From Candidatus Aldehydirespirator sp. (GTDB taxonomy: Bacteria; Actinomycetota; Acidimicrobiia; Acidimicrobiales; Aldehydirespiratoraceae), in NCBI GenBank assembly GCA_965204415.1, contig CBDBEL010000001.1:514562-578561 (forward strand): a stretch of 64,000 bases of DNA, in the 5' to 3' direction. Positions 698-56,675 of the stretch are shown here, piece by piece. The number at the start of each line of letters is the position of its first letter. Position 1 is the stretch's first letter. The notes under the pieces were generated by a model, which had not been told where the DNA came from, did no database searches, and was given only the letters and a program-made list of their open reading frames with translations. Made by a program: the position numbers and the translations under genes.

Positions 698-1684
698 TCA
701 GCCGGTGGTCTCTAGTCCAGCGATCTCGGCCACGGCCGCGATGGTCGGGCGAGGATCCGCGGCCATAGGCCCGAGATTGACGGTGTCGATCCCGGCCGAC
801 TCGAGCCAGGCCAGCTTGTCCTCGGCGTACTTGCGGCCGCCGGCGAAGGCCACCTGCTGCACGACCGGGCCGGGCACGGCGGCGGCGGCCCGGCGAGCCT
901 CCTGGAACTCGCGGCCGCTGTAGTTGGCGTCGATCTCCCCGATCAGATCATCGGGCATGCCCGCAGCCCGCGCCGCCGGCGGCGACGCCTTGGCCAACCA
1001 CGCCACGATGGCGCGAGCCGACTCGATGGCGGCCGGCTCGTCGTCGTCGACCGCCCCGTAGAGGCAGCAGGCGGTCTCGAAGCGGTCCACGGTGCTGTCA
1101 CCCCGCCCCCGCCGGAGGTGTTCGAGGGCTCGCCGCAGCGGCTCCGGCGAGAGCCCCACCAGCATGAGGACGCCGTCAGCGTGCCGGCCCGCGGTCTCGA
1201 GCGTGCGGGGACCCGATGCCGACACGAAGATCGGGATGGGGCCTGCGGCTGACCGCAGGTGCGATCCCACCAGCCGCTGCCGCCCGATCCGGGCGTCCAC
1301 GGTCTCGCCCCGCCACAGCCGCCGCATGGCGTCCATGTGCTCCACGAGGGTCGACAGCTTGGCCCTGGAGAAGCCCAGCTCGATCAACGGCCTCTCGCCT
1401 ACCCCTGTCCCGCAGGCCACCCGGCCGCCGCCGAGCTGGTGGAGCGAGCGGAAGACGTTGGCGGTGATGCCGGTGTGGCGGGTCAGCGGGTTCGTGACCG
1501 ACGTGCCGACCCTGAGGCGGGAAGTGGCCTTCAGGGCCAGCGTGGCGTACACGTAGGCGTCGCCGCAGTGCAGAGACGAGTCGCCGACCCAGAGGTCGTG
1601 GTAGCCGAGCCGCTCGATCCAGCGGACCAGCTCCACGAACTCCGCCGGTTCGGCGACCGCCTGCAGCGTCACCCCGTATCTCAC
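698..1684 (-). CDS. LLM-class (luciferase-like) flavin/F420-dependent oxidoreductase
   Basis: 328-aa ORF, GTG start; MRYGVTLQ..LGYHDLWVGDS.. pattern typical of the LLM TIM-barrel family. Confidence 0.8.
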   Translation of the reverse strand: MRYGVTLQAVAEPAEFVELVRWIERLGYHDLWVGDSSLHCGDAYVYATLALKATSRLRVGTSVTNPLTRHTGITANVFRSLHQLGGGRVACGTGVGERPLIELGFSRAKLSTLVEHMDAMRRLWRGETVDARIGRQRLVGSHLRSAAGPIPIFVSASGPRTLETAGRHADGVLMLVGLSPEPLRRALEHLRRGRGDSTVDRFETACCLYGAVDDDEPAAIESARAIVAWLAKASPPAARAAGMPDDLIGEIDANYSGREFQEARRAAAAVPGPVVQQVAFAGGRKYAEDKLAWLESAGIDTVNLGPMAADPRPTIAAVAEIAGLETTG

Positions 1685-1744
1685 CGCTGGATCCTGGCCG
1701 TGCCAGTGACGGTGACGGTCACGCTGCTTGCGCGGCTGCGGTGG

Positions 1745-2143
1745 CTATTCGGGAGTGGGCGAGAAGCCGTACACCAGCATGCCGGGCACGTCGCCCACGC
1801 ACTCGAGTTGGTACTGCCAGCCGGCCGGAAGGTAGACCGCGTCGTTGGGGCCGAACTCCAGGACGCCTTCGTCCCACTCGAGGCGGAAGTTGCCGTGGAG
1901 GATGAAGTAGACCTCCTCCAGGTAGCCGTAGTGGTGGTCGTTGGGCTCCAGTTCGTCGTCGGCCTGCGTTGACCAGCGGTTGGTCTTCTCGCCGGGCTGC
2001 ACCCAGGCCACGCCCAGCAGCATGTTGGACCCGCAGCGGGCGTTGGTGATCATCCTGGCGATGCGGACCTTGGTCGGAGCGTCCTCGGGTGCTCTAACCT
2101 CTACCGACGACAGAGGCACGACTTGGGGCTTGTTCTTGGCCAC
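1745..2143 (-). CDS. cupin domain protein
   Basis: 132 aa; cupin motifs HHYGYLEEVYFILHG and VYLPAGWQY; GTG start. Confidence 0.75.
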   Translation of the reverse strand: MAKNKPQVVPLSSVEVRAPEDAPTKVRIARMITNARCGSNMLLGVAWVQPGEKTNRWSTQADDELEPNDHHYGYLEEVYFILHGNFRLEWDEGVLEFGPNDAVYLPAGWQYQLECVGDVPGMLVYGFSPTPE

Positions 2144-2207
2144 GCCGGGAGTGTATGACCCTGTCGCCGCGGGCGCAGGATCCGCGCCGACCGTCGGGAG
2201 GCCGCAC

Positions 2208-5018: not shown

Positions 5019-5888
5019 GTGCAAAACGTCGTCTTCGGGATCGTCACCGGCAGCATCCTGGCCGTGGCGACCCTCGGCTTCGCGCTGGTACGCCAGACCG
5101 AGAACTTCCTCAACGTCGCCCACGCCCAGATGATGGCGCTGGGCGCCTTCGTCGGCGTCGTGCTGGTGGACACCTACGGGATGAACATCTTCCTGGCCGG
5201 CGCCATCACCGTGGTCGGGCTGGGCGCGTTGGGCGTTGTTCTGTCCGCGGTCTTCTTCCAGCCGGTGCGCCACCAGGGCGGCACCGTCCTGCTGTTCACC
5301 TCCATCGGCCTGGCGCTGATGATGTACGCCGCGATCCTCGCGCTGTTCGGCACGCAGGCCCGGTTCTACCCCGACGTGTCGGGCAGCCTCCACCGCTTCG
5401 CCGGCATCGGCATCGCCACCAACGAGCTGGTGATCATCGGGCTGGCATTCGGCAGCATCGCCGCGCTCCAGCTCTTCCTCAACTCCACCGGGCTGGGCCG
5501 GGCCATCCGGGCGGTGGCCAGCAACGACGACCTGGCCCGGGTGAGGGGCGTGCCGGTGCGCACCGTGTCCAACACGATCTGGTTCATCAGCTCAGCGTTC
5601 GGCGCCATGGCCGGGGTCATGCTGGGCGTGCTGGGCGCGGTCAACACCGAGATCGGCTGGCACAACATCCTGATCGTGCTGGCGGCTGCGGTGCTGGGCG
5701 GGCTGCGCAGCATCACCGGGGTGATCCTGGCCGGGCTGCTGCTGGGGATCATGATGGACGTCTCCGCGCTTATCATCCCCACCGCCTACCGGCCGGTGGT
5801 GGCCTTCGGCGTGCTGGTGGCGGTGCTGATACTGCGGCCCGAGGGGATCCTGTCCATCCAGCGCCGCAAGGACGCGGTGGTCGCATGA
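5019..5888 (+). CDS. livH: branched-chain amino acid-type ABC permease (LivH family)
   Basis: 289 aa, multi-TM, LivH-like sequence; operon context. Confidence 0.85.
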   Translation: MQNVVFGIVTGSILAVATLGFALVRQTENFLNVAHAQMMALGAFVGVVLVDTYGMNIFLAGAITVVGLGALGVVLSAVFFQPVRHQGGTVLLFTSIGLALMMYAAILALFGTQARFYPDVSGSLHRFAGIGIATNELVIIGLAFGSIAALQLFLNSTGLGRAIRAVASNDDLARVRGVPVRTVSNTIWFISSAFGAMAGVMLGVLGAVNTEIGWHNILIVLAAAVLGGLRSITGVILAGLLLGIMMDVSALIIPTAYRPVVAFGVLVAVLILRPEGILSIQRRKDAVVA

Positions 5889-5923
5889 CCGCCACGATCA
5901 CCCGGGAGGCGGCGGCACCATGA
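5885..5923 (+). other. candidate relay mini-ORF (12 codons, MTATITREAAAP)
   Basis: ATG overlaps the livH stop (ATGA); its TGA overlaps the livM ATG 5920 (ATGA). Confidence 0.35.
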
Positions 5924-6936: not shown

Positions 6937-7719
6937 ATGGAGCTGGTGCTCGACACGGTACGCAAGACCTTCGGGGGCGTGGTCGCGGTCGACGACGTGT
7001 CGGCGGTGATGCCCCGGGACAAGGTCACCGCGCTGATCGGACCCAACGGTGCGGGCAAGACCACCCTGTTCAACGCCATCACCGGCTTCGATCCCCCGGA
7101 CCGGGGGTCGATCAGCTTCGGCGACCGTCGCATCGACGGCCTGCCGCCGTGGCGGGTGGCCGAACTGGGGCTCATCAGGACCTTCCAGACCCCGGTCGGG
7201 TTCACCACCCTCACCGTGCGCGAGAGCATGCTCGCGGCGGCCACCCCCCATTTCGTCGAGACGCCGCTGGGGGCTCTCGGGCTGAGCCGCAAGGCCCGGG
7301 ACCACGAACGGGCCGCGGCGGCCCGGGCCGAGGAGATCACCGCCGAGCTGGGCATGTCGGACCTGCTCGACGTCCGCACCGACGAGCTGTCCGCCGGCGA
7401 CCGCAAGCTGCTCGAGTTCGCCCGCTCCCTGATGGCCGAGCCCAAGATGCTGCTGCTCGACGAGCCGGCCGCCGCAGTGGCGCCAGCCAACATCGGACGG
7501 CTGTCCCAGCTCGTGCGCAGGCTCTGCGACGAGCGAGGCCTCGGCAGCCTGATAATCGACCACAACCTCTCGTTCCTCATGCAGATCGCCGACGAGGTGC
7601 ACGTCCTCGACCGGGGCGCGCTGCTGGCCTCCGGGCCGCCCGCCGAGATCGCCGCCGACCCCGAGGTGATGCGGGTCTACCTCGGCGAGGACAAGGACGG
7701 CGACGGGAGCACCCGATGA
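6937..7719 (+). CDS. livG: ABC transporter ATP-binding protein (LivG family)
   Basis: Walker A GPNGAGKTT, signature LSAGDRK, Walker B LLLLDEP. Confidence 0.9.
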   Translation: MELVLDTVRKTFGGVVAVDDVSAVMPRDKVTALIGPNGAGKTTLFNAITGFDPPDRGSISFGDRRIDGLPPWRVAELGLIRTFQTPVGFTTLTVRESMLAAATPHFVETPLGALGLSRKARDHERAAAARAEEITAELGMSDLLDVRTDELSAGDRKLLEFARSLMAEPKMLLLDEPAAAVAPANIGRLSQLVRRLCDERGLGSLIIDHNLSFLMQIADEVHVLDRGALLASGPPAEIAADPEVMRVYLGEDKDGDGSTR

Positions 7720-8450
7720 GCGAGACCGTCCTGCGAGTCGAGGCCCTCGAGGCCGGCTACGGGGGCTTCCCGGTGCTGCACGGCGTCGACCTCGAGGTGA
7801 CCGCGGGCGAGATCGTCGCCGTGGTCGGGCCCAACGGTGCGGGCAAGTCGACGCTGCTGAAGACGATCTTCCGGCTGCTGCCGGCCCAGGGCGGGTCCGT
7901 GAGCTTCGAGGGGGCCGATCTGCAGCGCCACCCCACCCACAGCCTGGCCGAGCTCGGAATGGGCTACGTGCCCCAGGAGAACAACACCTTCCCCGACCTC
8001 AGCGTGCGCGACAACCTGTCGATCTCCCTGCGGGGATCCAGCCCCGTGGAGATCCGCCGGCGGGTTGCCGAGGTGGCCGAGTCGTACCCGGCTCTCAGCG
8101 ACCGCATGGCTCAGAACGCCAGCACGCTGTCGGGCGGCGAGCGCCAGATGCTGGCGCTGGCCAGCGCCATGATCACCGGGCCCCGCTTCCTGGCCCTCGA
8201 CGAGCCCACCACGGGCCTGGCGCCGTCCATCGTGCGGGAGCGCATCGACGACATCCTGCGCATCCGCGACTCGGGCACCACCCTCATGTGGGTGATCGAG
8301 GAGAGCCCGCTCATCTGCCTGCCCCACTGCGACCGGGTGTACGTGATGCAGGCCGGGGTTCTGGGCGATCCCGTGTCGAGCCGCGAGGTACTGGAGGACG
8401 CAGCCCTGCAGTCGCTCTTCTTCGGAGTCGACCACGCCGGCGGCGGCTAG
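7716..8450 (+). CDS. livF: ABC transporter ATP-binding protein (LivF family)
   Basis: ATG 7716 overlaps livG stop (ATGA). Walker A GPNGAGKST, LSGGERQ, LALDEP. Confidence 0.9.
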   Translation: MSETVLRVEALEAGYGGFPVLHGVDLEVTAGEIVAVVGPNGAGKSTLLKTIFRLLPAQGGSVSFEGADLQRHPTHSLAELGMGYVPQENNTFPDLSVRDNLSISLRGSSPVEIRRRVAEVAESYPALSDRMAQNASTLSGGERQMLALASAMITGPRFLALDEPTTGLAPSIVRERIDDILRIRDSGTTLMWVIEESPLICLPHCDRVYVMQAGVLGDPVSSREVLEDAALQSLFFGVDHAGGG

Positions 8451-8472
8451 AAGGCAACGGCTAGAAGGCGAC
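8445..8472 (+). repeat. 14-bp tandem duplication spanning the livF stop codon
   Basis: ggctagaaggcaac / ggctagaaggcgac. Confidence 0.8.
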
Positions 8473-14413: not shown

Positions 14414-14415
14414 CC

Positions 14416-15366: not shown

Positions 15367-16378
15367 GTACACCCCGACCGACGCCCGGGCGTGGGCGCTG
15401 GAGAACCTCGTGGGGTGCTGCGGCTGTGTCCTGCCCACGTTCACCGGCGACCTGTCGACGCTGAACGAGGCCGCCATCCGCCACGACGTCGACATGGAGC
15501 GCGGGCTCGGGATGCGAGCCGTCCTCGTCGTGAGCGAGGGCGGCACCACCCTTGAGGAGTACCGGCGGCTGCTGGAGATCGTCGCGGACGCGGCCGGCGA
15601 CCTCATGGTGGTGGTGCAGGCGTCGCAGCCGACCTGGGACCTCCAGCAGCTCACCATCGAGTGGGGCGCCGAGCTGGGCGCCGACCTGGTGCTGCCGTCC
15701 TACCCGATGACGTTCTACCCGCGGACCCTCGACGAGCTCTACGAGGCCAGCAAGGCGATGATCGACCGCTCGCCGCTGGGCGTGCTGCTGTTCGCCATCG
15801 ACCAGTGGAACTTCGCCCGGCTGCACCCGGCCGCGTTCCCGGTAGAGCTGCTGGAGAGGCTCGCCGCCGACTGCGGAATGCTGGTCGGGGTCAAGAACGA
15901 GATCGGACTGCCCTACACGGGCGGCATGGACGACGTCTTCCGGCTCCTCGGCGACCAGATCGTGGTGACCGACCCGATGGAGTCGAACGCGCCGATCTGG
16001 ATCCGCCACTACGGCATGAAGTACATGGGGACCTCCAACTACGAGGCCTTCGGGCCCCGCATCCCCCGGATGCTCGAAATGCTCGGCGACCCCGCCACCT
16101 GGGACGAGGGGATGGAGCTGTACTGGCAGAACACGCCGGTCCGCAAGGCCAACAGCGCCACCGTGAGCCCGGTGGTGGCCACCACCGGGATGGTGCCCCG
16201 GAGCATCTGGAAGTACCAGGGCTGGCTCAACGGCTTCAACGGCGGGCCGCTGCGGGGTCCGCTGGCCCGCATCAACGCGGCCCAGATGGGCATGATCCGC
16301 AAGGCCGCGGTCGATGCCGGCCTAGACGTCACCGAGGATCCAGACGAGGCGTTCTGGGTCGGAAGGAACCCCGCGTGA
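15359..16378 (+). CDS. dihydrodipicolinate synthase/NAL-family class I aldolase-like protein
   Basis: 339 aa; Schiff-base Lys context VGVKNEIG; 8-nt overlap with the upstream gene. Confidence 0.7.
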   Translation: MPEYTPTDARAWALENLVGCCGCVLPTFTGDLSTLNEAAIRHDVDMERGLGMRAVLVVSEGGTTLEEYRRLLEIVADAAGDLMVVVQASQPTWDLQQLTIEWGAELGADLVLPSYPMTFYPRTLDELYEASKAMIDRSPLGVLLFAIDQWNFARLHPAAFPVELLERLAADCGMLVGVKNEIGLPYTGGMDDVFRLLGDQIVVTDPMESNAPIWIRHYGMKYMGTSNYEAFGPRIPRMLEMLGDPATWDEGMELYWQNTPVRKANSATVSPVVATTGMVPRSIWKYQGWLNGFNGGPLRGPLARINAAQMGMIRKAAVDAGLDVTEDPDEAFWVGRNPA

Positions 16379-16427
16379 CCATCGACGGTTACGAGGCGTT
16401 CTGGGCGGACAGGAACCCCGCGTGACC
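16344..16427 (+). repeat. junction duplication, two 37-nt copies with period 47
   Basis: acgaggcgttctgggtcggaaggaaccccgcgtgacc at 16344-16380 versus acgaggcgttctgggcggacaggaaccccgcgtgacc at 16391-16427. Confidence 0.85.
16375..16425 (+). other. candidate relay mini-ORF (16 codons, VTIDGYEAFWADRNPA)
   Basis: GTG overlaps the stop of 15359-16378 (GTGA); its TGA overlaps GTG 16422 (GTGA). Confidence 0.4.
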
Positions 16428-17429
16428 GCGCTGGGAGGCCCCCCGCTGTTCCTCGACGGCGAGCTCGTCGATGCGCTCGCCTCGGTGGAGGTCGGGCTGG
16501 AAGCGGCCCGGGTGTCGGCGGGCGCCGAAGCCGTGACCGGACGGGTGCAGATCGCGGACGACCGGACCTGGATGCGGGTGCTGGCCGGCATCCTGCCCGA
16601 GCTCGGCATAGTCGGCTACAAGGAGTTCCACCGGGTCGGGCAGCGGGTGCGGTACCACGTGAGCATCTTCGAGCGCGACACCGCCGACATGATCGGCGTC
16701 GTCGACGGTCGGCGCATCACCAGCCTGCGCACCGCCTCCACCGCTGCGCTGGCGTTCGAGCACGTCGACGACGGCCGGCCCAAGAAGCTGGCGGTGATCG
16801 GCAGCGGCGAGGAGGCCAAGGAGGGACTGCGGGCGGTGGCCGCAGTGTCGACCCTGGCCGAGGTGGCCGTGTTCAGTCCCACACCGGCCAACCGCCAGGC
16901 GTTCTGCGAGGTGCACGGCCCGGTCGCGGGGGTGCCCGTCTACCCGGTGGAGTCGGTCGACGCCGCGCTGGCCGGCGCCCAGCAGGCGTACGTGGCGACC
17001 TCCTCGGCCGGCCCGGCGTTCCTGGAAGCACGCCAGGTCGCGCATCTCGACATGCTGGCCGGGATCGGATCGACCCGGCCCGACCAGCGGGAGCTAATCG
17101 GCGACGTCTTCACCGGGGCATCCCAGGTGGTCTTCGACTGCGCCGACGCCCGCCACGAGCCGGGAGACGTGATCGACGCGGTCGATCGGTTCGGGTTCGA
17201 CCCCGACGGCGCCCTGTTGTTGAAGGACTGGCTGGAGTCGCCCTACGAGGCGACCGGCGAGGGTCCGCTGGTGTTCAAGTCGATCGGCACCGTCGAGCAG
17301 GACCTCGCCCTCGCCCACCGCCTGCTGGTCGCCGCCCGCGAGCAGGGACTGGGGATCCCGGCCCCCGAGATCGGGTCGCTGCGCATCATGCGGGACCCAG
17401 AGGCCGAGCGAGGAGGACAACAGGCATGA
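16422..17429 (+). CDS. ornithine cyclodeaminase/mu-crystallin family protein
   Basis: GRRITSLRTASTAALA motif, Rossmann LAVIGSGEEAK; GTG start. Confidence 0.8.
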   Translation: MTALGGPPLFLDGELVDALASVEVGLEAARVSAGAEAVTGRVQIADDRTWMRVLAGILPELGIVGYKEFHRVGQRVRYHVSIFERDTADMIGVVDGRRITSLRTASTAALAFEHVDDGRPKKLAVIGSGEEAKEGLRAVAAVSTLAEVAVFSPTPANRQAFCEVHGPVAGVPVYPVESVDAALAGAQQAYVATSSAGPAFLEARQVAHLDMLAGIGSTRPDQRELIGDVFTGASQVVFDCADARHEPGDVIDAVDRFGFDPDGALLLKDWLESPYEATGEGPLVFKSIGTVEQDLALAHRLLVAAREQGLGIPAPEIGSLRIMRDPEAERGGQQA

Positions 17430-17560
17430 TGCGGCGAAACGCACTGAGCGAGGCCGTGGCCCGAGCGGCCCGTGAGCGCAGCGAACAAGAGCGGGAAAGC
17501 CCCCTCTGCACCGCGAAGCGACGGCATCGGCGCACCGGGCGGGACCCAGAGGCCGAGCGG
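17398..17560 (+). repeat. interspersed intergenic repeat, copy A (core 17446-17496)
   Basis: Core gagcgaggccgtggcccgagcggcccgtgagcgcagcgaacaagagcggga, preceded and followed by a gaggccgagcg box; boundaries approximate. Confidence 0.8.
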
Positions 17561-17578
17561 GCGGGACGACCGCGATGA
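17426..17578 (+). other. candidate relay mini-ORF (50 codons) reading through interspersed repeat copy A
   Basis: ATG overlaps the OCD-like stop (ATGA); its TGA 17576-17578 overlaps the next ATG 17575. Confidence 0.3.
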
Positions 17579-17616
17579 TGCGGCCATCTGCGCACCGTGC
17601 GGGACTAGGTTCCTGA
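17575..17616 (+). other. candidate relay mini-ORF (13 codons, MMRPSAHRAGLGS)
   Basis: Starts in ATGA overlap with the previous mini-ORF; stops 17 nt before ATG 17634. Confidence 0.3.
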
Positions 17617-19522: not shown

Positions 19523-19532
19523 GCGGTGAAGA

Positions 19533-19630
19533 CGAGAGCCATGAGACTGCGCAGGATCGACGCTCGGGTGCGCTGCGACGGCGCAGCCAGCCCGAGGCAG
19601 AGGCGAGAGCCATGAGGCTACGCAGGATCG
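19533..19630 (+). repeat. junction duplication, period 71
   Basis: cgagagccatgagactgcgcaggatcg at 19533 versus cgagagccatgaggctacgcaggatcg at 19604; weaker similarity continues about 20 nt further. Confidence 0.8.
19541..19615 (+). other. candidate relay mini-ORF (24 codons, MRLRRIDARVRCDGAASPRQRREP)
   Basis: Duplicate of the extradiol dioxygenase start; its TGA overlaps the true ATG 19612 (ATGA). Confidence 0.4.
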
Positions 19631-20529
19631 GCTTCGGAGTGCGCGACGTCGAGGCTCAGGCCCGTTTCCTGCGGGAGGCGTTCGCCCTCGTGCCCGAGAA
19701 CGCCGGAGCCGGCGGTGCCCGGTTCTCTGCTCCGGGATCGGTCGAGCATGCCGTCACGTCGCTGCGGCCGGCCCCCGTCGACCGGGTCGATGAGGTGGCA
19801 TTCGCGGTCGAGAGCACCGATCAGGTCGACCATATGCACGCTCACCTCGTCGAGCTGCATGCCGACGTGGTCGACCGTCCCGGCCCGACCTCCGAAGGCG
19901 GCTACGGCTTCGAGGTGTTCGATCCCGAGGGCCACCTGCTGTCCATAGCGGCCAGCAGCGATGCGCGGACCCCGCCCGGCCATGAGACAGGGCACGGCGT
20001 GCCGCTCGACCTGAGCCACGTCGTGTTCGACAGTCCCGACATCGGCGCCCTCTCGGGCTGGTACTGCGCCGCGCTCGGCTTCCGGGTCACCGACTGGCTA
20101 GAGGACAAGCTCGTCTTCATGACCACCAGCCGCCACCACCACCAGATCGCGCTGGCCACCTCCGCCAACTCGGGCCTGAACCATGTCGCCTACGAGTGCG
20201 CCGACATCGACGACTTCATGCGAGCCACCGGCCGCACCATGCGGCTGGGACATGCGCTGCTGTGGGGACCAGGGCGGCACGGGCCCGGCGACAACACGTT
20301 CGCCTACTTCCGCTCGCCGGCCGGCTTCATCTGCGAGTTCACCACCGGACTCGAGCTCACCGACAGCCCGGACTGGGTCGTGCGCACCTGGGAGTCAGTG
20401 CCCGAGCAGGCGGACCTGTGGGGCACGTCCAATCCCCGCCCCAACGACGCCTTCGGCACCACCGCAGACCCCGGCCTAGGAATCCTCCCCAACAGCCCCG
20501 AGGAACTCGAACTCCTATCAGCCCGCTGA
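19612..20529 (+). CDS. extradiol ring-cleavage dioxygenase (two-domain VOC, catechol 2,3-dioxygenase-like)
   Basis: 305 aa; HHHQIAL, LNHVAYE, GPGRHGPGDNTFAYF, EF motifs. Confidence 0.85.
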   Translation: MRLRRIGFGVRDVEAQARFLREAFALVPENAGAGGARFSAPGSVEHAVTSLRPAPVDRVDEVAFAVESTDQVDHMHAHLVELHADVVDRPGPTSEGGYGFEVFDPEGHLLSIAASSDARTPPGHETGHGVPLDLSHVVFDSPDIGALSGWYCAALGFRVTDWLEDKLVFMTTSRHHHQIALATSANSGLNHVAYECADIDDFMRATGRTMRLGHALLWGPGRHGPGDNTFAYFRSPAGFICEFTTGLELTDSPDWVVRTWESVPEQADLWGTSNPRPNDAFGTTADPGLGILPNSPEELELLSAR

Positions 20530-37743: not shown

Positions 37744-38517
37744 CTAGCGGAACTCGGCCTTGCGGATGCCTTTGGGGTCGATCACGTCGCGGATGAGGTG
37801 GAGTTCCTCGGCGGTGGGCAGGCGGCTGGCTGGGACTTCTTCGGGCACGGCCAGCTCGAAGGGTGTGGCCGCGATCACGTCGTCGACGCTGATGCCGGGG
37901 TGGACGGTCCGCAGGCGCATCCTGCGGTCGGGCGTCTCGAAGTCGTAGGCGGCCAGCTCGGTGACGACCCTGCGGATCTCGTGGAAGCGGCCGCTGGGCT
38001 CGGCCAGCGCGGCCACCCGGTCGTATCCCGGTCCCGACACCACGTCCACGCTCTCGACGAAGGCCCGGGCCTGGTTGGGGACCCAGTAGCTGGTGGTGTG
38101 GTTGATTACGTTGCCGGGCGCGCCCCGCAGGCCGAGGAGCTGGGCCTTGGGCTGCCGGTAGTCCCCGATGGCGGCGAAGTTCTGGTTGCCGTGGCCGTCG
38201 ATCTGGCTGGCGCCCATGACCACATGACGGCGCCCTGCCCAGATCTGGTCGAACACCGTCCGGAACGGGAAGTAGCCCTCGACGACGATGTCGTCGGCGT
38301 TGGCGGGATCGTCCACGATCGTGCCCAGCGGCAGCGTGCCGGCCACCGCGTAGGCGATGGTGTCGGTGAGCATCAGGTCGGGCTCGAAGCTGGCCCGGGC
38401 CAGCCGTCCGGCCGCCACCGGGAACGGGCCCATGGGATGGCACAGCAGCTCGCCGTCCCCCCTGAAGGCCTCGGCCAGCGCCACCAGGCAGATCTCATCG
38501 ATGGTGGCGCCGCTCAT
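37744..38517 (-). CDS. CoA-transferase subunit B (glutaconate/3-oxoacid CoA-transferase family)
   Basis: MSGATIDEICLVALAEAF..; follows subunit A; track ORF trimmed to ATG 38517. Confidence 0.8.
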   Translation of the reverse strand: MSGATIDEICLVALAEAFRGDGELLCHPMGPFPVAAGRLARASFEPDLMLTDTIAYAVAGTLPLGTIVDDPANADDIVVEGYFPFRTVFDQIWAGRRHVVMGASQIDGHGNQNFAAIGDYRQPKAQLLGLRGAPGNVINHTTSYWVPNQARAFVESVDVVSGPGYDRVAALAEPSGRFHEIRRVVTELAAYDFETPDRRMRLRTVHPGISVDDVIAATPFELAVPEEVPASRLPTAEELHLIRDVIDPKGIRKAEFR

Positions 38518-38564
38518 CGCCCCACCCTCGACAGGGGCCTCCTGCCCAACACCCGGCCGCTCAT
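38514..38564 (-). other. candidate relay mini-ORF (16 codons, MSGRVLGRRPLSRVGR)
   Basis: ATG overlaps the CoA-transferase A stop; its TGA overlaps subunit B ATG 38517. Both junctions read GCGATGAGCGGC. Confidence 0.4.
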
Positions 38565-39577: not shown

Positions 39578-40384
39578 GTGGCCGACAATCCGCTCGACAT
39601 GACCGGCCGGACCGTGATCGTGACCGGGGCCACCATGGGCCTCGGCCGGGTGATCGCCACCAGGTTCCTGGACCAGGGCAGCGATGTGGTCGTCTGCGCC
39701 CGCCGCGAGCCCGATGAGCCGGTGGCTGCGGCCGGGCGGGAGGCGGTCTTCGTGGCCGCCGATGTGCGCGACCCCGAGCAGGTGGCCGCGGTGGTGGAAC
39801 ACGCCGTGGACCGCACCGGCCGGATCGACGTTCTGGTCAACAACGCCGGAGGTGCCCCACCCGCCGAGTCCGCAACCGTCTCGCCCCGGTTCAACGAGAA
39901 GATCGTCGCCCTCAACCTGCTGGCCCCGCTGACCTTCGCGCAGGCAGTCCACCCCGTGATGAGCGCCCAGGACGGTGGCGGCGCGATCATCAACATCTCG
40001 TCGGTGTCGAGCATCCGCCCTTCGCCGGCCAGCGCGGCCTACGGCGCGGCCAAGGCGGGACTGGACAGCCTCACCCGGACGCTGGCCCACGAGTGGGGCC
40101 CGTCCATCCGGGTCTTGAGCGTCCTGGTCGGGCTGCTGCGCACCGAGCAGGCCCACCTCTACTACGGCGACGAGGCCGGGATCGAGGCCGTAGGCCGCAC
40201 CCTGGCGCTGGGCCGGCTCGGCACCCCCGACGAGATCGCCGACGTGGTGCTGTTCTGCGCCTCGCCCCTCGCCTCATACATGTCGGGGGCCTCGGTTCCG
40301 GTGCACGGCGGCGGCGAGGTGCCCTCCTACCTGCTAGCCACCACCGGCGACGTGGCTGCCTACCGCCCCGGCTCGAAGCCGTGA
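39578..40384 (+). CDS. SDR-family oxidoreductase
   Basis: VTGATMGLGRV, NNAG, YGAAKAG; GTG 39578 after GGGAGAG. Confidence 0.85.
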   Translation: MADNPLDMTGRTVIVTGATMGLGRVIATRFLDQGSDVVVCARREPDEPVAAAGREAVFVAADVRDPEQVAAVVEHAVDRTGRIDVLVNNAGGAPPAESATVSPRFNEKIVALNLLAPLTFAQAVHPVMSAQDGGGAIINISSVSSIRPSPASAAYGAAKAGLDSLTRTLAHEWGPSIRVLSVLVGLLRTEQAHLYYGDEAGIEAVGRTLALGRLGTPDEIADVVLFCASPLASYMSGASVPVHGGGEVPSYLLATTGDVAAYRPGSKP

Positions 40385-40488
40385 GAATCCTGGGCCGCAG
40401 GCTGGCGGGCCGCGGCAACCCGACGAAACCAGTGAGCGAACAGAACGCTCGCGTGAGAATCCTGGGCCGCAGGCTGGCGGGCCGCGGC
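40380..40488 (+). repeat. junction duplication, two identical 37-nt copies with period 72
   Basis: cgtgagaatcctgggccgcaggctggcgggccgcggc at 40380-40416 and 40452-40488. Confidence 0.95.
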
Positions 40489-41697: not shown

Positions 41698-42455
41698 CCG
41701 TTCATCTTGTGGGCGCGGGTCCCGGCGACCCCGACCTGCTCACCGTCCGGGCCGTCAACCTGCTTCGCAAGGCCGACACGGTGGTCTACGACCGGCTCGT
41801 CGATCCGGCCGCGCTCGATCTGGCGCCACCGTGGGCCGAGCTCATCGGCGTAGGCAAGACGCCCGGTGCGCCCAGCCCTTCCCAGGACGAGATAAGCGCC
41901 ATCCTCATCGACCGGGGCCGCCGGTTCTCCTGCGTCGTGCGGCTCAAGGGCGGCGACCCGTTCGTGTTCGGACGGGGCGGCGAGGAGGCGGCCGCCCTGC
42001 GAGCCGCCGGTCTCGAAGTCGAGGTGGTCCCCGGTGTCACCTCGGCGGTGGCCGCACCGGCTGCGGCCGGCATACCGGTCACCCTGCGAGGCGTCGCCAG
42101 CGGCTTCACCGTCGTCACCGCCCACCAGGACCCGTCGTCGGACCGGTGGCTCGACTGGGACGCCCTGGCCCGGGCCGGCACCACGCTGGTGATCCTGATG
42201 GGCGCGGCCCGGGCCGAGCAGATCGCCGACCGGCTGCGGGCCGGCGGCATGGCCGGCGACACCCCGGTCGCGGTCATCAGCGCGGCCACGACCCGCGACC
42301 AGACCATTGACCGCACCGACCTCTCGGGCCTGCGCCGCCTCCGGGTGGCCAGCCCGGCCACGATCGTGGTCGGCGCGGTCGCGGCCACCGACGTGCTGGC
42401 CGGATCAGAACTCGCGTCCATCGGCGCCCCGACACCCCAAGGAGCCGTGCCATGA
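41694..42455 (+). CDS. cobA: uroporphyrinogen-III C-methyltransferase
   Basis: VGAGPGDPDLLT, KGGDPFVFGRGGEE, VPGVTS; GTGA overlap with the upstream gene. Confidence 0.9.
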   Translation: MTVHLVGAGPGDPDLLTVRAVNLLRKADTVVYDRLVDPAALDLAPPWAELIGVGKTPGAPSPSQDEISAILIDRGRRFSCVVRLKGGDPFVFGRGGEEAAALRAAGLEVEVVPGVTSAVAAPAAAGIPVTLRGVASGFTVVTAHQDPSSDRWLDWDALARAGTTLVILMGAARAEQIADRLRAGGMAGDTPVAVISAATTRDQTIDRTDLSGLRRLRVASPATIVVGAVAATDVLAGSELASIGAPTPQGAVP

Positions 42456-42567
42456 CCCTGCTTGAGCCACGCACCGCCGCCTCGACGCAAACCGAGCGGC
42501 CAGACCCCCCGACACCCAAGGAGCTGTGCCATGACCCTGCTTGAGCCACGCACCGCCGCTTCGACGC
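42427..42567 (+). repeat. junction duplication, two ~61-nt copies with period ~79
   Basis: ccccgacacc(c)caaggagc(c/t)gtgccatgaccctgcttgagccacgcaccgccgc(c/t)tcgacgc. Confidence 0.9.
42452..42544 (+). other. candidate leader mini-ORF (30 codons) from the duplicated sulfite reductase start
   Basis: ATG overlaps the cobA stop (ATGA); stops 14 nt inside the 42531 CDS. Confidence 0.3.
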
Positions 42568-44363
42568 CGGCCGCGCCGACTGGGCCGCCGACCGCCCGAG
42601 GCGTGGTCGACCCCGAGATACGAGCCGACGTCGACAAGTACAAGCAGCAATATGAGCGGTTCTTGAGCGGCGAGTTGAGCGACGACGTGTTCCGGGTGTT
42701 CCGGCTCACCAACGGCATCTACGGGCAGCGCCAGGGCGGCACCAACCAGATGGTGCGGGTCAAGGTGCCCTACGGGTCGATCCAGCCCGACCAGCTCGAG
42801 ATGCTGGGCTGGCTGGTCGACGCCTACAGCCGGGGATGGGGCCACATCACCACCCGCCAGAACATCCAGTTCCACTTCGTGCAGCTCGACCGGATCCCCG
42901 AGGTTCTCGAGCATCTGGCGTCGGTGGGCCTCACCACCCGGGAGGCCTGCGGCGACACGGTCCGCAACGTCCAGGGCTGCCACCTCGCCGGCGCCTGCCC
43001 CCACGAGATCCTCGACATCACGCCGTGGGCTGAGGCCACCTACCGGCACTTCGTGCGCAACCCGATCAGCCAGCGGTTGCCCCGCAAGTTCAAGATCAAC
43101 TTCTCGGGCTGCGAGTCCGACTGCGGCCAGGCGATGTTCAACGACGTCGGCGTGATCGGCGTAGTCCGCCATACCGAGACCGGTGAGGTGGAGCGGGGCT
43201 TCAAGGTATTCATCGCGGGCGGTCTCGGCACCACGCCCCACCCTGCCCTGGCCCTCGAGGACTTCACTCCCCGCGAGGAGCTGCTTCCCACCATCGAGGC
43301 CTGCCTGCGGGTCTTCGATCAGGCCGGCAACCGCGACAACAAGCTGCGGGCCCGCATGAAGTGGCTGGTCGACACCCTCGGCTTCGAGGAGGTCCAGCGG
43401 CGGGTGCTGACCCAGCGCAAGTTCCTGGTGGCCTCCACCTCCTGGCCGGGCGGGATCCCCGCCGAGGTGCAGGCCGGCGGGGACGACCCGGCCGGCACAG
43501 GCGACGACCAGGACCAGGTCACCGCCATCGGCCACGGCACCCCGGTGACCATAGGCACCGGCAGCGCCTACGAGCGCTGGGAACGGGCCAACGTTGTGCG
43601 CGGCGTGCGCGACGGCACCGTCTCGGTGTACGCCCAGGCCCATCTCGGTGACATCACCGGGGACCAGTTCCGCGCCCTGGCCGCCCTGCAGCGGGACCTC
43701 GGCACGGACGTGCGCCTGACCAACCGCCAGAACGTGGTGTTCAGGGGCATCCACGCCGAGGACCTCCCCCTGGTCTTCGAACGGCTGAGCAGCATGGACA
43801 TGGCCCAGCCCGGCGCCGAGCTGTCCCGCGACGTGGTGGCCTGCCCCGGATCGGATACCTGCAACCTGGCCGTCACCCAGAGCCGCGGACTGGGCCACGC
43901 CATCGGCGAGCGCCTGGAGTCCGAGGGCTTGGCCGACGTGGGCGGCATCCGCATCAACATCTCGGGATGCCCCAACTCCTGCGGCCAGCACCACGCGTCG
44001 GACATCGGGTTCTTCGGAGCGGAGCGCCGGGTTCACGGACGCAGCGCGCCCGGCTACCAGATGCTGCTCGGCGGCCACATCGGCTCACAGCAGATGCACT
44101 TCGGCGAGAAGGCCCTGCGCCTGCCCGCCCGAAACGCTCCCGAGGCCACCGCCCGGGTGATCCGGCGCTTCACCGAGGAGCGCCAGGCCGGCGAGAAGTT
44201 CAGGGACTGGATGCAGCGGGCCGGCGGGGCCCGCGCCGTGGCCGCGGGCCTCAAAGACCTCGACGAGTTCCCCGCCTACGACGACGACCCGTCCTTCTAC
44301 GTCGACTTCGACGAGACCGGCCCCTACACGGTGGAGACCGGCGCCTCGGAGTGCGCTACCTGA
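42531..44363 (+). CDS. sulfite/nitrite reductase hemoprotein (ferredoxin-dependent, siroheme-[4Fe-4S])
   Basis: ATG 42531 after AAGGAG. Cluster Cys motifs CPGSDTCNLA and GCPNSCGQH. Confidence 0.9.
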   Translation: MTLLEPRTAASTPAAPTGPPTARGVVDPEIRADVDKYKQQYERFLSGELSDDVFRVFRLTNGIYGQRQGGTNQMVRVKVPYGSIQPDQLEMLGWLVDAYSRGWGHITTRQNIQFHFVQLDRIPEVLEHLASVGLTTREACGDTVRNVQGCHLAGACPHEILDITPWAEATYRHFVRNPISQRLPRKFKINFSGCESDCGQAMFNDVGVIGVVRHTETGEVERGFKVFIAGGLGTTPHPALALEDFTPREELLPTIEACLRVFDQAGNRDNKLRARMKWLVDTLGFEEVQRRVLTQRKFLVASTSWPGGIPAEVQAGGDDPAGTGDDQDQVTAIGHGTPVTIGTGSAYERWERANVVRGVRDGTVSVYAQAHLGDITGDQFRALAALQRDLGTDVRLTNRQNVVFRGIHAEDLPLVFERLSSMDMAQPGAELSRDVVACPGSDTCNLAVTQSRGLGHAIGERLESEGLADVGGIRINISGCPNSCGQHHASDIGFFGAERRVHGRSAPGYQMLLGGHIGSQQMHFGEKALRLPARNAPEATARVIRRFTEERQAGEKFRDWMQRAGGARAVAAGLKDLDEFPAYDDDPSFYVDFDETGPYTVETGASECAT

Positions 44364-50660: not shown

Positions 50661-50725
50661 CTGGATCAGCCGCAGAGGCGGGCTTCGACCTGCGACGCCT
50701 CCCTAGTCATTTCGTAGACGCAGCA

Positions 50726-52630: not shown

Positions 52631-52765
52631 CCCCGATTGCCCTTCCAGTCGAGGCCGATGAGCCGGCATCCAGCCGCGTAACCCTGCCAGAGCGCGCTGC
52701 TGGTCCGATAATACTATTGACTACTGGTTCATCCGATAGGAGGGGACGATCCGGCCGGTCAGCGG

Positions 52766-54712
52766 TCAGCTCAGCCAGACCTGGTGCAACTGCACCCGGC
52801 CCTGGTTGTTGCAGAACAGCTCCACCCCGTCGGGAGAGGTCTGCCCGCAGATGTTGTGGACGTTGTCGCGGGCACCGATGGTCCAGTTGGCGTGGTTGAA
52901 GAAGATGTACGTGTAGGAGTCCCGGAGGTCCTCCGAGATCTGGTGCCAGATCTCCACCCGCCGGTCCAGGTCGTCGATCCTGCGCTGCTCGAACAGGAGG
53001 GCGTCGCGTTCGGGATCGCAGTCCCGTGGCCAGTTGAGCGAGATGATGTCGATCGAGGCGCACTGGATCCACAGCACGTCGTTGTCAGGATCGACGGCGC
53101 CGAACTGGCGCCAGGTGACCACGTTGTAGAAACCGATGGCCACCTCCGTGATGTGCTCGTCCTGGAGCAGTTCCTGCTGGGTGACGTTGAAATAGTCCTC
53201 CCAGCTGTCGATCAGCAGGTCGGCGATGCGGGTCTGGGCGACCGACGGGCCCGAGTACTGGAACTCGACGTTGATCTTGCCGTCCGTGCAGTGGGAGCGC
53301 CGCTGCCCGGTGAAGACCGGCCATTCGTAGTCACCGGGATTGTCGGCGCAGTAGGCGGCCACCAGCGGTCCGGCCTTCTCGGCCATGTTGGTCTCCTGCT
53401 TCACGTCCGGGTTGTGCCAGATCAGGTCCGGATGGAACATCGAGTCGGCCGCCGGTGCGGTGCCCTGGCGGATCAGCGCCACGTAGGCGTCGCGGTCGGT
53501 GGCGAACGTGAGCGCCTGGCGGGCCCTGATGTCGTTGAACGGGGGCTGCTGGATGTTCATCATGGCGAAGTCCTCGCTGGACCTCACGTTCTCGATGGTC
53601 CTCACGCCCGCGTCTGCAGACTCGCGCAGGGTGAGGATGGCGTCGGAGTTGCTGGTCACCATCAGGTCGATCTCGCCGGCAGCCAGCCGCTCCGCGGCGA
53701 TCACGGTGTCGGTGATGATGTTGACCTCGATGCGGTCGAGGTATATGTCGGTGATGTCCGCGGCCCAGTAGTCGGGGTTGCGCACGAGCACCGTCTTCTC
53801 GTCCTGGACGCGGCCTCCGTCCGGGATCATGAAGGGACCGGTGCCGACCGGGTACTGGTTGAGCGTCGGATCCTCGAGGGCCCGGGCCAGCCACTCCGAC
53901 GGGGCGATCATGCCGAGCTGGCTGGTGACGTACTGGGGGAAGTTGGCCATGGGCGCCAGCGGGTTGAACTGCACGGTGAGGTCGTCCACCTTCACGACCG
54001 CGCCGGTCTCGGGATAGAAGGGACGGACCGCGAGCGACACCTCCAGGTCGAGGAGCTGGGCCTCGTAGGTGGCGATGACGTCGTCGGCGTCGAGCTCGGT
54101 GCCGTCGTGGAAGCGGACCCCCTCCCGCAGCTTCATCTGCCACGACTCGCCGCCGTTGATGGGGGTGAACGACTCGGCGAGGTACGGGATCCAGTTGCCT
54201 TGGGTGTCCCAGTAGGCGACGGGATCGAACACCGGGTAGGTCATCACGTAGGCCGACACCGCGAAGCTGCCGGAGGTGGGGTTCAGGCTGTCGCCCTCGG
54301 CCTCGACGCCGACGCGCAGCGTGCCCCCGAACCGGGGCTCGGGCTCGGCCGGCGCCTCCACGACGGCCTCCTCGCCGTCCTCACCGTCCTCGGCGGGCGG
54401 CGGTGCGGTGGTCGTGGTGGTGGTGTCCACCGGGGCGGTCAGCGGCTCCTGCTCCTGGGTGTCCTCCGGCTCGGTGTCGGCCGGAGCCGGCGCCGCCTCG
54501 CCCGCGCCGTCGCCGTCGGCATCGACGGCAGCGTCGCCGTCGCCGGACTCAGCGGGCTCGGAGGGAGCGGCCGTTTCCGTGGTTTCGACCGCCTGGGAGG
54601 GCTGCGACTCGCCGTCGTCTCCCCCGCCGCCGCATGCTGCCGCGATCAGGGCGAAGGCGAGCACGGCTCCGAGCCACCATCTCCAAGGCTTGTTGATCCG
54701 TCGAACAGTCAT
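52766..54712 (-). CDS. ABC transporter substrate-binding lipoprotein, family 5, paralog 3
   Basis: Track ORF (to 55447) trimmed to MTVRRINKPWRWW (ATG 54712); lipobox IAAACGGGG. Confidence 0.85.
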   Translation of the reverse strand: MTVRRINKPWRWWLGAVLAFALIAAACGGGGDDGESQPSQAVETTETAAPSEPAESGDGDAAVDADGDGAGEAAPAPADTEPEDTQEQEPLTAPVDTTTTTTAPPPAEDGEDGEEAVVEAPAEPEPRFGGTLRVGVEAEGDSLNPTSGSFAVSAYVMTYPVFDPVAYWDTQGNWIPYLAESFTPINGGESWQMKLREGVRFHDGTELDADDVIATYEAQLLDLEVSLAVRPFYPETGAVVKVDDLTVQFNPLAPMANFPQYVTSQLGMIAPSEWLARALEDPTLNQYPVGTGPFMIPDGGRVQDEKTVLVRNPDYWAADITDIYLDRIEVNIITDTVIAAERLAAGEIDLMVTSNSDAILTLRESADAGVRTIENVRSSEDFAMMNIQQPPFNDIRARQALTFATDRDAYVALIRQGTAPAADSMFHPDLIWHNPDVKQETNMAEKAGPLVAAYCADNPGDYEWPVFTGQRRSHCTDGKINVEFQYSGPSVAQTRIADLLIDSWEDYFNVTQQELLQDEHITEVAIGFYNVVTWRQFGAVDPDNDVLWIQCASIDIISLNWPRDCDPERDALLFEQRRIDDLDRRVEIWHQISEDLRDSYTYIFFNHANWTIGARDNVHNICGQTSPDGVELFCNNQGRVQLHQVWLS

Positions 54713-54882: not shown

Positions 54883-55692
54883 TCAGGGATGCTGACTGCT
54901 GACCGAGACGACCTCTCCGGTCATGTAGCCGGCCAGGTCGCTGGCCAGGAACACCATCACGTTGGCCACCTCCCAGGGCTCGGCCGGCCGGCCGAAAGCC
55001 TCCTCTTGGGCGAGGTCGGCCAGCAGCGCCTCGTCGGTGGTCTTGGCCAGGAACGGGTGCCAGGCCAGGCTGGGCGCAACGCAGTTCACCCTGATCCCGT
55101 GCTCGGCCGCCTCCAGGGCGGCGCAGCGGGTCAGGGCCATCACCCCGGCCTTGGCCGCGGCGTAGTGGGCCTGCTCGGTCTGGGCCCTCCAGCCGGAGAC
55201 GGAGGCGTTGTTGACGATGGCGCCGCCGGCGCCCTGGTCGATCATCCGGCGCAGCGCGGCCCGGGTGCAGCGCATGGTCCCGTCGAGCGTCACCGAGAGC
55301 ACAGCCGACCACTGCTCGTCGGTCATGTCCACCAGACGCACCGATCCGCCCAGCCCCGCGTTGTTCATCATCACGTCGATGCCGCCCAGCAGGGTCGCGG
55401 CGGCGTCCATCAGGGCCTGGACATCGTCTTCGGAGGTCACGTCGCACCGTGTCGCCGCGGGCCGTGACCCGGTGTCGGCCTCCAACCAGTCGCAGGCGGA
55501 CGACAGGCGACGCTCGTGGATGTCGGAGATGAGGACCGACGCGCCCTCGATCAGGGCCCGGCGGGCTACAGCGGAGCCGATCCCTGCGCCGGCCGCAGCG
55601 GTGACCACAACCCGCCGGCCCTCGAGCAGGCCTCGACCCGGCGGCTCCGTAGGAGGCTCAGGCCATGGCCACCCGACCCGCTCGGAAGTCAT
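54883..55692 (-). CDS. SDR-family oxidoreductase
   Basis: TAAAGAGIGSAV, NNAG, YAAAKAG. Confidence 0.85.
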   Translation of the reverse strand: MTSERVGWPWPEPPTEPPGRGLLEGRRVVVTAAAGAGIGSAVARRALIEGASVLISDIHERRLSSACDWLEADTGSRPAATRCDVTSEDDVQALMDAAATLLGGIDVMMNNAGLGGSVRLVDMTDEQWSAVLSVTLDGTMRCTRAALRRMIDQGAGGAIVNNASVSGWRAQTEQAHYAAAKAGVMALTRCAALEAAEHGIRVNCVAPSLAWHPFLAKTTDEALLADLAQEEAFGRPAEPWEVANVMVFLASDLAGYMTGEVVSVSSQHP

Positions 55693-55762
55693 GGGCCGTC
55701 CACTTCGACCGGCTCGGCGGGAGGCTCAGGCCATGGCCGCTCTCCGTGCTCGGAAGCCATGG
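55652..55762 (-). repeat. junction duplication, two 43-nt copies with period 68
   Basis: ggaggctcaggccatggcc..gctcggaag(t/c)catgg at 55652-55694 and 55720-55762; centres diverged. Confidence 0.8.
55689..55760 (-). other. candidate relay mini-ORF (23 codons, MASEHGERPWPEPPAEPVEVDGP)
   Basis: Starts 3 nt after the stop of 55764-56675; its TGA overlaps ATG 55692 (ATGA). Confidence 0.4.
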
Positions 55763-55763
55763 C

Positions 55764-56675
55764 TCACCCGCCGGCCGTCTCGGCCATTCGCCGCTCGAGG
55801 TCGGCGATCATCGGGTTGGGCTCCTGACCGACGGTGCCGGGCAGCCTCTCGGCGATCTCGGCGGGTGTCCACCGCTCACCGGCTGACCACATCGAGCGGA
55901 CCTCTGCGGGCTGGTTCCAGACCGAGATCCGGCTTCCCACGACGGTGTAGATCTGCGCGTTGACGTCCCGGCCGGCGTCGCTGAGGAGGTAGACCGCCAT
56001 GGGCGCCACCGCCTCGGGCTCGCCCGTCTCGATCTCGAAGGGGACGTTCTCGCTCATCCGGGTGCGGGCCACCGGGGCGATGCAGTTGGCGTTGATCGCC
56101 GGGCCGCCCCGCAGCCGGATCGAGGCGGCGGTCATGGCCGCCGAACGGGTGAGGCTCACGATGCCGCCCTTGGCCGCGGAGTAGTTGGCCTGGGCGGTGG
56201 ACGCCGAGAACGCCCCGGAGGTGAACCCGACCAGCGAACCGCCGCCCGGCTGCTTGCGCATCCTCGCCAGAGCGGCGCGGTACACGTTGAAATGGCCTTT
56301 GAGGTGGACGGCCACCACGTGGTCCCACTCGTCCTCGCTCATGTTGAACAGCATCCGCTCCCGCAGCACCCCCGCCGGGCACACCACGCCGTCGATGCTC
56401 CCCCACTGATCGCAGGCCGCCTCGACTATGGCGGCGCCCACATCGAATCGGGAGACGTCGCCGGCCACCGCGATCGCCTCGCCGCCGGCGGCCCGGACCT
56501 CTTCCACGGCCGCATCGGCCACCTCGCTCGAAGGGTCGGAGCCGTCGAGGGCGACGCCGTAGTCCGCCACCACGACGTTGGCGCCCTCGGCCGCGCAGGC
56601 CAGCGACACCGCCCGCCCGATGCCGCCGCCGCCACCGGTGACCGCGACGGTCTTGCCCTCGAGGTGCTCGCTCAT
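55764..56675 (-). CDS. SDR-family oxidoreductase (long C-terminal extension)
   Basis: VTGGGGGIGRA, YSAAKGG. Confidence 0.85.
   Translation of the reverse strand: MSEHLEGKTVAVTGGGGGIGRAVSLACAAEGANVVVADYGVALDGSDPSSEVADAAVEEVRAAGGEAIAVAGDVSRFDVGAAIVEAACDQWGSIDGVVCPAGVLRERMLFNMSEDEWDHVVAVHLKGHFNVYRAALARMRKQPGGGSLVGFTSGAFSASTAQANYSAAKGGIVSLTRSAAMTAASIRLRGGPAINANCIAPVARTRMSENVPFEIETGEPEAVAPMAVYLLSDAGRDVNAQIYTVVGSRISVWNQPAEVRSMWSAGERWTPAEIAERLPGTVGQEPNPMIADLERRMAETAGG

Follow-up and report, generated by a model that had tools for sequence, protein, structure and literature searches.

Two kinds of described system are close to the arrangement considered here. Termination-reinitiation coupling of neighboring cistrons requires that stop and start overlap or lie at a very short distance, a gap of ~20 nt being enough to abolish it (Huber et al. 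2023, PMC10666635; PMC6728339), and it is established that gene pairs encoding subunits of heteromeric complexes are enriched for coupled overlaps (PMC10666635, PMC6728339). The MIRUs of the Mycobacterium tuberculosis complex (short for mycobacterial interspersed repetitive units), with units of 77 and 53 bp (PMC4213456), are intercistronic in operons and, as two later papers recount from the original description, carry open reading frames (ORFs) coupled to the flanking genes at -4 spacing (Supply et al. 1997, via PMC12548453, PMC3184786). The present analysis concerns a 64,000-nt stretch of DNA (the window; 70% G+C) from Candidatus Aldehydirespirator sp. (contig CBDBEL010000001.1), in which several same-strand gene junctions are bridged by one or two very short relay ORFs, each running from one stop/start overlap to the next. 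A first, sequence-only reading of the window had taken such chains for something not known as a systematic operon feature; the MIRUs, with their 4-nt-coupled ORFs between operon genes, are a precedent on the account just cited.

Strict chains, in which every step from the upstream stop to the downstream start is an RTGA overlap (R is A or G), are found at five junctions of the window: g7/g8, g17/g18, g23/g22, g25/g24 and g41/g40 (Table 1). Gene boundaries were set independently of the chains, by a codon-usage model, Pfam, orthologue alignment and third-party gene calls on relatives (the last of which concur at the junctions they cover), and the chain finder accepted as a link either an RTGA or a TGATG overlap, with the requirement that the last link hit a homology-defined start. 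All 14 mini-ORF strings listed by the sequence-only reading are present at their coordinates, with the lengths and start/stop tetramers ascribed to them. Five of the eight chains it had claimed are strict (5885, 16375, 22940 plus 22869, 25837 plus 25820, and 38564); those at 19541 and 55760 merely end on the next start, and at 17426 there is no relay. Its two direct TGATG overlaps were likewise verified, and its 11 direct RTGA overlaps came down to 10. By Pfam, the relay junctions join genes for subunits of heteromeric complexes, namely permeases of the LivH/LivM type, the S, M and L subunits of molybdenum hydroxylases, and the A and B subunits of CoA-transferase.

The weight of the argument is carried by relatives. 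In a scan of one genome per species the nearest genomes were metagenome-assembled genomes (MAGs) of Acidimicrobiia/Acidimicrobiaceae and Candidatus Aldehydirespirator, which puts this marine bacterium in an uncultivated clade of Acidimicrobiales, and 19 syntenic loci with 80-92% nucleotide identity to the window were compared, spanning its positions ~1-29 kb, 35-54 kb and 45-64 kb. Orthologous junctions in these 19 loci vary in length and sequence yet retain frame and overlap, which bears out the earlier proposal that the geometry of coupling is kept across inserted or duplicated DNA. For statistics, the expanded junctions whose two ends allow an overlap were collapsed to 24 distinct length states, and these were set against a null model in which the spacer interior was shuffled and the frame randomised. 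Strict chains make up 19 of the 24 states, with two in-frame extensions and three broken junctions, against 6.2 strict chains expected (P = 5e-8); for the relatives by themselves the figures are 14 of 15 against 3.9 expected (P = 6e-8), both P values being indicative. The hops take 12 different lengths, every one of which is 2 mod 3. The further regularity suspected by the sequence-only reading, that spacings tend to be 11 mod 12, does not recur (5 of 18 hops in relatives, P = 0.48) and was treated as chance. A Shine-Dalgarno (SD)-like motif precedes 58% of hop starts, compared with 20% of all RTG codons, and repeats that lie off operon junctions show no mod-3 bias (periods 17, 71, 71, 61/60, 166 and 16).

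An annotation-free scan for tandem duplications that carry an RTGA put their density at 62 per Mb for the window, against 31 per Mb for the clade and 4.6 per Mb in distant Acidimicrobiia loci, where all of them are multiples of 3; the density here is 7-15 times higher, which shows that the phenomenon is concentrated in this clade. Among 71 unrelated genomes the scan gave 18 matches, 13 of them in a single locus (L012, from a Dehalococcoidia MAG) where short direct repeats, of periods from 21 to 176 nt, are unusually numerous.

At individual junctions the number, length and sequence of hops change from one relative to another and the frames stay open. The g7/g8 chain is retained in relatives at spacings of 26, 35, 32+35 and 29+35 nt; its spacer is 26, 29, 32 or 35 nt long, changing in steps of 3, while the encoded peptide changes freely, and the second hop of the two-hop relatives is a duplicated g8 start. 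At g17/g18 the second copy of the window's duplication (16375-16425) forms a 16-codon relay ORF from the g17 stop to the g18 GTG (16422) and repeats the last 15 codons of g17 in the frame of g17. The same junction is a direct GTGA overlap in six relatives (L001, L002, L004, L006, L009 and L167) and has expanded independently in three others, by 74 nt in L005, by 74 nt of unrelated sequence in L008 and by 32 nt in L169, all of which chain. Between the 2Fe-2S subunit gene g23 and the molybdopterin subunit gene g22, which begins with the GTG at 22822, the second hop repeats the g22 ribosome-binding site, the GTGA and the seven initial codons of that gene as a 47-nt copy of 97% identity; relatives have a direct overlap (L002, L168, L170), an open 38-nt hop (six genomes) or an 83-nt hop (L008). 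Between the FAD subunit gene g25 and a further molybdopterin subunit gene, g24 (ATG at 25761), the second hop arose when 47 nt were inserted behind codon 4, counted from the ancestral start of g24, and one-hop forms of 17/29, 77 (L006) and 92 nt (L008) are found in relatives. The CoA-transferase subunit genes g41 (38561-39454) and g40 (ATG 38517) have, in L081, three tandem 74-nt units at their junction, which yield two 25-codon relay ORFs. Relays also occur in relatives at junctions that are unexpanded elsewhere: g24/g23 is direct in nine genomes including the window, has a 5-nt gap in L168 and two hops (74+71 nt) in L170, and g14/g15 occurs unexpanded (0), with a 21-nt in-frame duplication (L005) and with a 71-nt relay (L008).

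Most of the window's chains sit in imperfect tandem duplications of their own junction, as found by two repeat finders that were blind to annotation, and these duplications are derived and specific to lineages. The sequence-only reading had proposed this origin for five places; the repeat finders support it for the regions at 16344, 19533, 22807 and 55652, and at 38514 just 12 nt are shared. ORFs 22869, 19541 and 55760 each copy the ribosome-binding site and first codons of the downstream gene. What a duplication of an RTGA junction produces depends on its length d: d = 2 mod 3 gives a relay ORF that ends on the next RTGA, d = 0 mod 3 extends the N-terminus of the downstream protein in frame, and d = 1 mod 3 gives an out-of-frame ORF that crosses the downstream start. 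Five of the window's duplications belong to the class d = 2, one to d = 0 (72 nt) and one to d = 1 (79 nt).

Two of the duplications give ORFs that end on the next start and begin a little beyond the upstream stop. At g20/g21 the 24-codon ORF 19541-19615 begins 19 nt past the g20 stop and ends on the g21 ATGA (19612), and in relatives an ordinary gap of 24 nt, which includes a ribosome-binding site, separates the two genes (with a TTG start in L004 and L007). At g54/g53 the 23-codon ORF 55760-55689 begins 3 nt past the g54 stop and ends on the g53 ATGA (55692); the duplicated segment is present as a single copy (TGAGCCATG) in five relatives (L161, L162 and L164-L166), and in L161, whose protein is 98% identical, that copy consists of the 5' part of the window's copy one and the 3' part of its copy two, which looks like the product expected from collapse by unequal recombination. 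The in-frame case, g41p/g42, had not been listed before: the GTG at 40381 on the g41p stop reads through to the GTG at 40453, so that the direct overlap is retained and g42 gains 24 N-terminal residues; in L081 the junction is a single direct GTGA and the 72-nt duplication is absent. The frame-breaking case, likewise not listed as a duplication before, is g44/g45, where ORF 42452-42544 runs 14 nt beyond the g45 ATG (42531); L081 has a direct ATGA overlap there, with no 79-nt duplication, and 37 more distant loci have plain direct overlaps or gaps at this junction and no relays.

Other junctions have a spacer and no relay. At g18/g19 the duplicated tail of g18 encloses a dispersed intergenic repeat (core ~17446-17515), ORFs 17426-17578 and 17575-17616 leave the last 17 nt before the g19 ATG (17634) uncovered, as the sequence-only reading had already noted, and that start is not reached in any relative, the junction being occupied by gaps of 12-35 nt or by arrays of 104-nt period (L008 with 3.5 copies; L003) and never by an overlap. 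The three weaker cases of the sequence-only reading also fell away as relays: neither L167 nor L168 conserves the start of 1722-1681, 10675-10725 lies within an AT-richer insert with stops in all frames, and 42452-42544 belongs to the frame-breaking duplication just described. No chain is present at g10/g11, g11/g12 or g12/g13, which contain AT-richer inserts with TAG stops and GTAGA..TCTAC palindromes that are probably regulatory.

Inserts of this palindromic type, with stops in all frames, lie at 9640-9676 and 10679-10758 of the window and at 3225-3304 of L005; those at g11/g12 and g12/g13 are possibly operator or promoter sites within the gene cluster, and the 70-nt g12/g13 insert is common only to the window and L005. 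A consensus scan of 8300-20000 found no promoter-like or terminator-like site, which is weak evidence for a single transcript.

The explanation favored here, to which a probability of roughly 0.7 is assigned, is that the stop/start overlaps between operon genes of this clade act like minisatellites, and that selection retains those variants whose hops of 3n+2 nt preserve termination-reinitiation coupling. A unit of ~20-150 nt containing a ribosome-binding site and an RTGA overlap would frequently be duplicated in tandem, probably by slipped-strand mispairing or unequal recombination at microhomology, after which copy number could grow and shrink; variants with d = 2 mod 3, and some with d = 0, would persist, and selection would weed out those that break the chain. 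A ribosome that terminates on the upstream gene would reinitiate at the start codon that overlaps its stop, read the spacer to its end at the next start and there reinitiate once more, so that the downstream subunit gene would remain translationally coupled, the peptides of the mini-ORFs being themselves presumably functionless. Because a gap of ~20 nt abolishes coupling, 30-150 nt of inserted DNA would uncouple the two genes, save where the insert is itself a cistron that begins on the stop and finishes on the start.

Several points weigh against this explanation. The window considered alone gives a borderline result, 5 of 9 eligible junctions being strict where 2.3 are expected (P = 0.05), and states of the same junction may share descent, which makes the 24 states less than fully independent. 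That the mini-ORFs are translated, that coupling works by reinitiation and that purifying selection is the filter are inferences. Each duplicated unit holds an SD-like site, and downstream genes could therefore initiate de novo without any relay. The repeat at 40380/40452 switches abruptly from 100% identity to unrelated filler, a boundary that tandem duplication followed by drift fails to explain. Finally, expansions that break the chain do persist: the 79-nt g44/g45 duplication, the 70-nt g12/g13 insert, and the gaps at g10/g11 and g18/g19.

Selection might act against interference and not for reinitiation. Ribosomes would use any spare start that brings a ribosome-binding site along, and an out-of-frame ORF begun there and running across the real start would occlude that start or yield junk protein. 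A duplication would then be tolerated only if its spare ORF ends no later than the real start, with the downstream gene translated from its own ribosome-binding site. The SD-like sites of most duplicated units fit such a scheme, as do the tolerance of in-frame extensions and the behavior of ORFs 19541 and 55760, which begin a few nt past the upstream stop yet end exactly on the start. It is nevertheless rather unlikely: most first hops begin exactly on the upstream stop, including those of g7/g8 and g25/g24, where the initiation region is not duplicated; any stop before the start would suffice, yet the ORFs end precisely on the start in the 19 strict states; and the g44/g45 duplication persists although its ORF passes the start. 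It is quite unlikely, in turn, that the junctions are evolvable rheostats in which each hop cuts the fraction of ribosomes passed to the downstream cistron, such that unequal recombination, by adding and removing hops, would adjust the stoichiometry of subunits or the flux through the pathways of catabolic operons, much as contingency loci do, with the clade perhaps also possessing an active or unusually frequent mechanism that generates duplications.

Neutral origin was weighed as well: duplications of all lengths, in DNA whose 70% G+C makes stops rare and RTGA common, might leave chains as by-products. Shuffling of the spacer interior, the test put forward by the sequence-only reading, retained a one-hop chain in 60-88% of trials; it has little power, however, because a one-hop chain is set by length mod 3 and the end motifs. 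The borderline value for the window alone and the three non-junction arrays that are also 2 mod 3 (17, 71 and 71 nt) are likewise in keeping with neutrality, whereas the remaining repeats outside junctions have periods of 0 or 1 mod 3, the spacers gain and lose nucleotides in multiples of 3, and neither the excess of strict chains over the frame-randomised expectation (in all states and in relatives only) nor the restriction of twelve different hop lengths to 2 mod 3 would be anticipated, so that this account is very unlikely. Still more remote is the pair of notions that the mini-ORFs encode functional micropeptides or that the duplications are artefacts of MAG assembly, both of which are extremely improbable. 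Open frames are indeed retained across relatives, and the window and most relatives are MAG contigs; but the peptides are recycled fragments of the neighbors' termini, free in sequence and length, with no counterpart at direct-overlap orthologues, and the expansions recur across many assemblies made independently, among them contigs that are complete or of megabase scale, and respect gene frames, unlike assembly errors.

Table 1. Relay ORFs, duplications and direct overlaps of the window (g, gene; coordinates in nt)
Feature	Coordinates	Strand	Details
g7, branched-chain amino acid permease	5019-5888	+	
g8, second permease	5920-6927	+	
g7/g8 relay mini-ORF	5885..5923	+	12 codons; ATG on g7 TGA; TGA on g8 ATG; spacing 35 nt
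g17/g18 tandem duplication	16328..16425	+	47 nt; copies last 15 codons of g17 plus GTGA junction
g23/g22 two relay ORFs	22940-22866 and 22869-22819	-	24 codons and 16 codons; hops 71+47 nt
g25/g24 two relay ORFs	25837-25817 and 25820-25758	-	6 codons and 20 codons; hops 17+59 nt
g41/g40 relay ORF	38514..38564	-	16 codons; spacing 47 nt
g20/g21 tandem duplication	19530..19651	+	71 nt; ribosome-binding site, ATG and ~first 10 g21 codons
g54/g53 tandem duplication	55642..55762	-	68 nt; start region of g53 (SDR)
g18/g19, no relay	17381..17616	+	g18 tail plus stop duplicated 149 nt downstream (17381-17435, 17530-17584)
g41p/g42 duplication	40380..40488	+	72 nt; 40380/40452 pair, 37 nt identical, in frame
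g44/g45 duplication of ATGA junction	42436..42592	+	79 nt (1 mod 3); frame-breaking exception
Tandem duplication	16344		period 47; 89% identity
Tandem duplication	17381		period 149; 82% identity
Tandem duplication	19530		period 71; 76% identity
Tandem duplication	22806		period 47; 97% identity
Tandem duplication	42436		period 79; 85% identity
Tandem duplication	55642		period 68; 81% identity
Direct RTGA overlaps, verified	7716 (7716..7719, ATGA, g9/g10), 11256, 12119, 18968, 40381, 41694	+	
Direct RTGA overlaps, verified	23416, 27767, 36091, 47475	-	
TGATG overlaps, verified	45434, 46517	-	

By Pfam, the window consists of catabolic and transport operons, which encode a branched-chain amino acid ABC transporter, an AtzD-type ring-opening amidohydrolase, Rieske oxygenases, three sets of CoxSML-type molybdenum hydroxylase subunits, CoA-transferase subunits, a sirohaem/sulfite reductase operon and a peptide ABC transporter. 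Upstream of the last, three to four paralogues of a family-5 solute-binding protein stand in tandem (48756-54712, minus strand), and their number varies among relatives (L161, L162, L164). The gene for a DEAD-box helicase (31222-32529, plus strand) overlaps a DUF3516 ORF (32436-33323, plus strand) in another frame, and the two look like a single helicase gene that a frameshift near 32436-32529 has split; as the match to DUF3516 takes in only positions 30-321 of the 464 in the profile, truncation of the gene may have occurred as well.

Repeats of other kinds are also present. The dispersed intergenic repeat met at g18/g19 is ~55-70 nt long, with the consensus GAGCGAGGCCGTGGCCCGAGCGGCCCGTGAGCGCAGCGAACAAGAGCGGGAA.CACCCCGCCGCAACGCG, and its copies are 96-100% identical between unrelated loci and genomes. 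Window copies lie at 17446-17515 (plus), 48627-48690 (plus), 58826-58760 (minus) and, in part, 28230-28199 (minus); others are found in L003, L006, L008 (as part of the 104-nt unit repeated 3.5 times), L081, L161, L167 and L169-L171. The repeat has no Rfam match and no significant fold, and neither the copy at 17446-17515 nor the others form a relay; the window as a whole has no Rfam match at gathering score, and 48480-48760 has none at E<=1. A 17-nt unit (CAGCCGAACCCGCCGGC) is repeated 6.7 times at 27286-27399, in the gap between the convergent genes g26 and g27, and a 15-nt unit (CGGACTCGACACGCG) 7.8 times in frame at 41544-41660 (plus strand), near the C-terminus of the sirohaem synthase-like g43. 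In L170 (7618-7800) and L171 (7636-7800) a 21-nt unit, absent from the window, is repeated ~8 times in frame in a short ORF upstream of a branched-chain amino acid binding-protein gene. The divergent CoA-transferase/SDR promoter gap holds a conserved inverted repeat, TGGCAGC...GCTGCCA (window 39482-39535; L081 6705-6915), which in L081 is triplicated with a 71-nt period, an array of a likely operator that is unrelated to reading frames.

If the coupling explanation is correct, dozens of independent insertions at operon junctions would have survived almost only where the overlap chain is unbroken, and natural variation would offer a direct evolutionary measure of the strength of selection on stop-start coupling. 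The principle of the MIRUs, familiar since 1997 from a single repeat family of one genus, would extend to an actinobacterial class far from that genus and to units of another origin, the local duplication of junctions, and a general rule for the tolerance of operons toward intercistronic insertions would be suggested. For annotation, gene callers will misplace starts or overlook mini-cistrons at such junctions; for design, the native one-hop and two-hop junctions are ready test pieces for the efficiency of serial reinitiation.

Compared with described systems, every link of the chains is a canonical same-strand -4 or -1 overlap (4 nt or 1 nt shared by stop and start), as in termination-reinitiation at ATGA/TGATG overlaps (Huber et al. 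2019, PMC6728339; 2023, PMC10666635), and here too the linked genes are mostly those of heteromeric-complex subunits. In the known cases, however, two real genes overlap directly, whereas here one or two non-functional mini-cistrons intervene and two or three serial reinitiations would be required. Mycobacterial upstream ORFs (uORFs) with NUGA overlaps (PMC11260477; Shell et al. 2015, via PMC12548453) and synthetic bicistronic designs (PMC13255528) share with the relays a short ORF without a coding function that ends on the start of the gene it serves; unlike the relays, which lie between cistrons and start on the previous stop, they stand at the 5' end of a transcript and use ordinary initiation. 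Like bacterial variable-number tandem repeats (VNTRs) formed by slipped-strand mispairing, the junction arrays are imperfect head-to-tail copies, polymorphic in number between close relatives, but the unit length of an ordinary VNTR is free mod 3 (or 0 mod 3 inside genes), whereas the units here are constrained to 2 mod 3.

The closest likeness is to the MIRUs. Both lie between operon genes in the direction of translation, as units (40-100 bp in MIRUs, 21-149 nt here) that are often tandem and vary in copy number: among relatives the same junction has 0, 1 or 2 hops, and units are repeated up to 3 times (74 nt, L081) or 3.5 times (104 nt, L008). In both, each unit contains a short ORF that shares 4 nt at either end with the adjacent stop or start, an arrangement seen here as strict RTGA/TGATG chains in the great majority of expanded states; MIRU units of 77 and 53 bp are both 2 mod 3, as are the hops; and in both the insert is proposed to leave expression of the downstream gene almost unaffected. 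MIRUs, however, are a dispersed, sequence-related family of about 40 loci that is thought to be mobile, whereas the units here copy their own junction (the upstream gene's tail, the downstream gene's head, or both), in Acidimicrobiales and not in Mycobacterium, and the present cases include two-hop chains as well as junctions that expanded independently in different lineages. The possibility that the hops derive from a dispersed mobile family was considered and rejected: in BLAST searches of the window and 171 loci each hop or filler of the window matches its own locus alone, and the hop units align to the flanking gene ends. For want of a dispersed homologous family, and in a different class of Actinomycetota, the relay junctions are not MIRUs proper; they work like MIRUs, but by local duplication of the junction itself.

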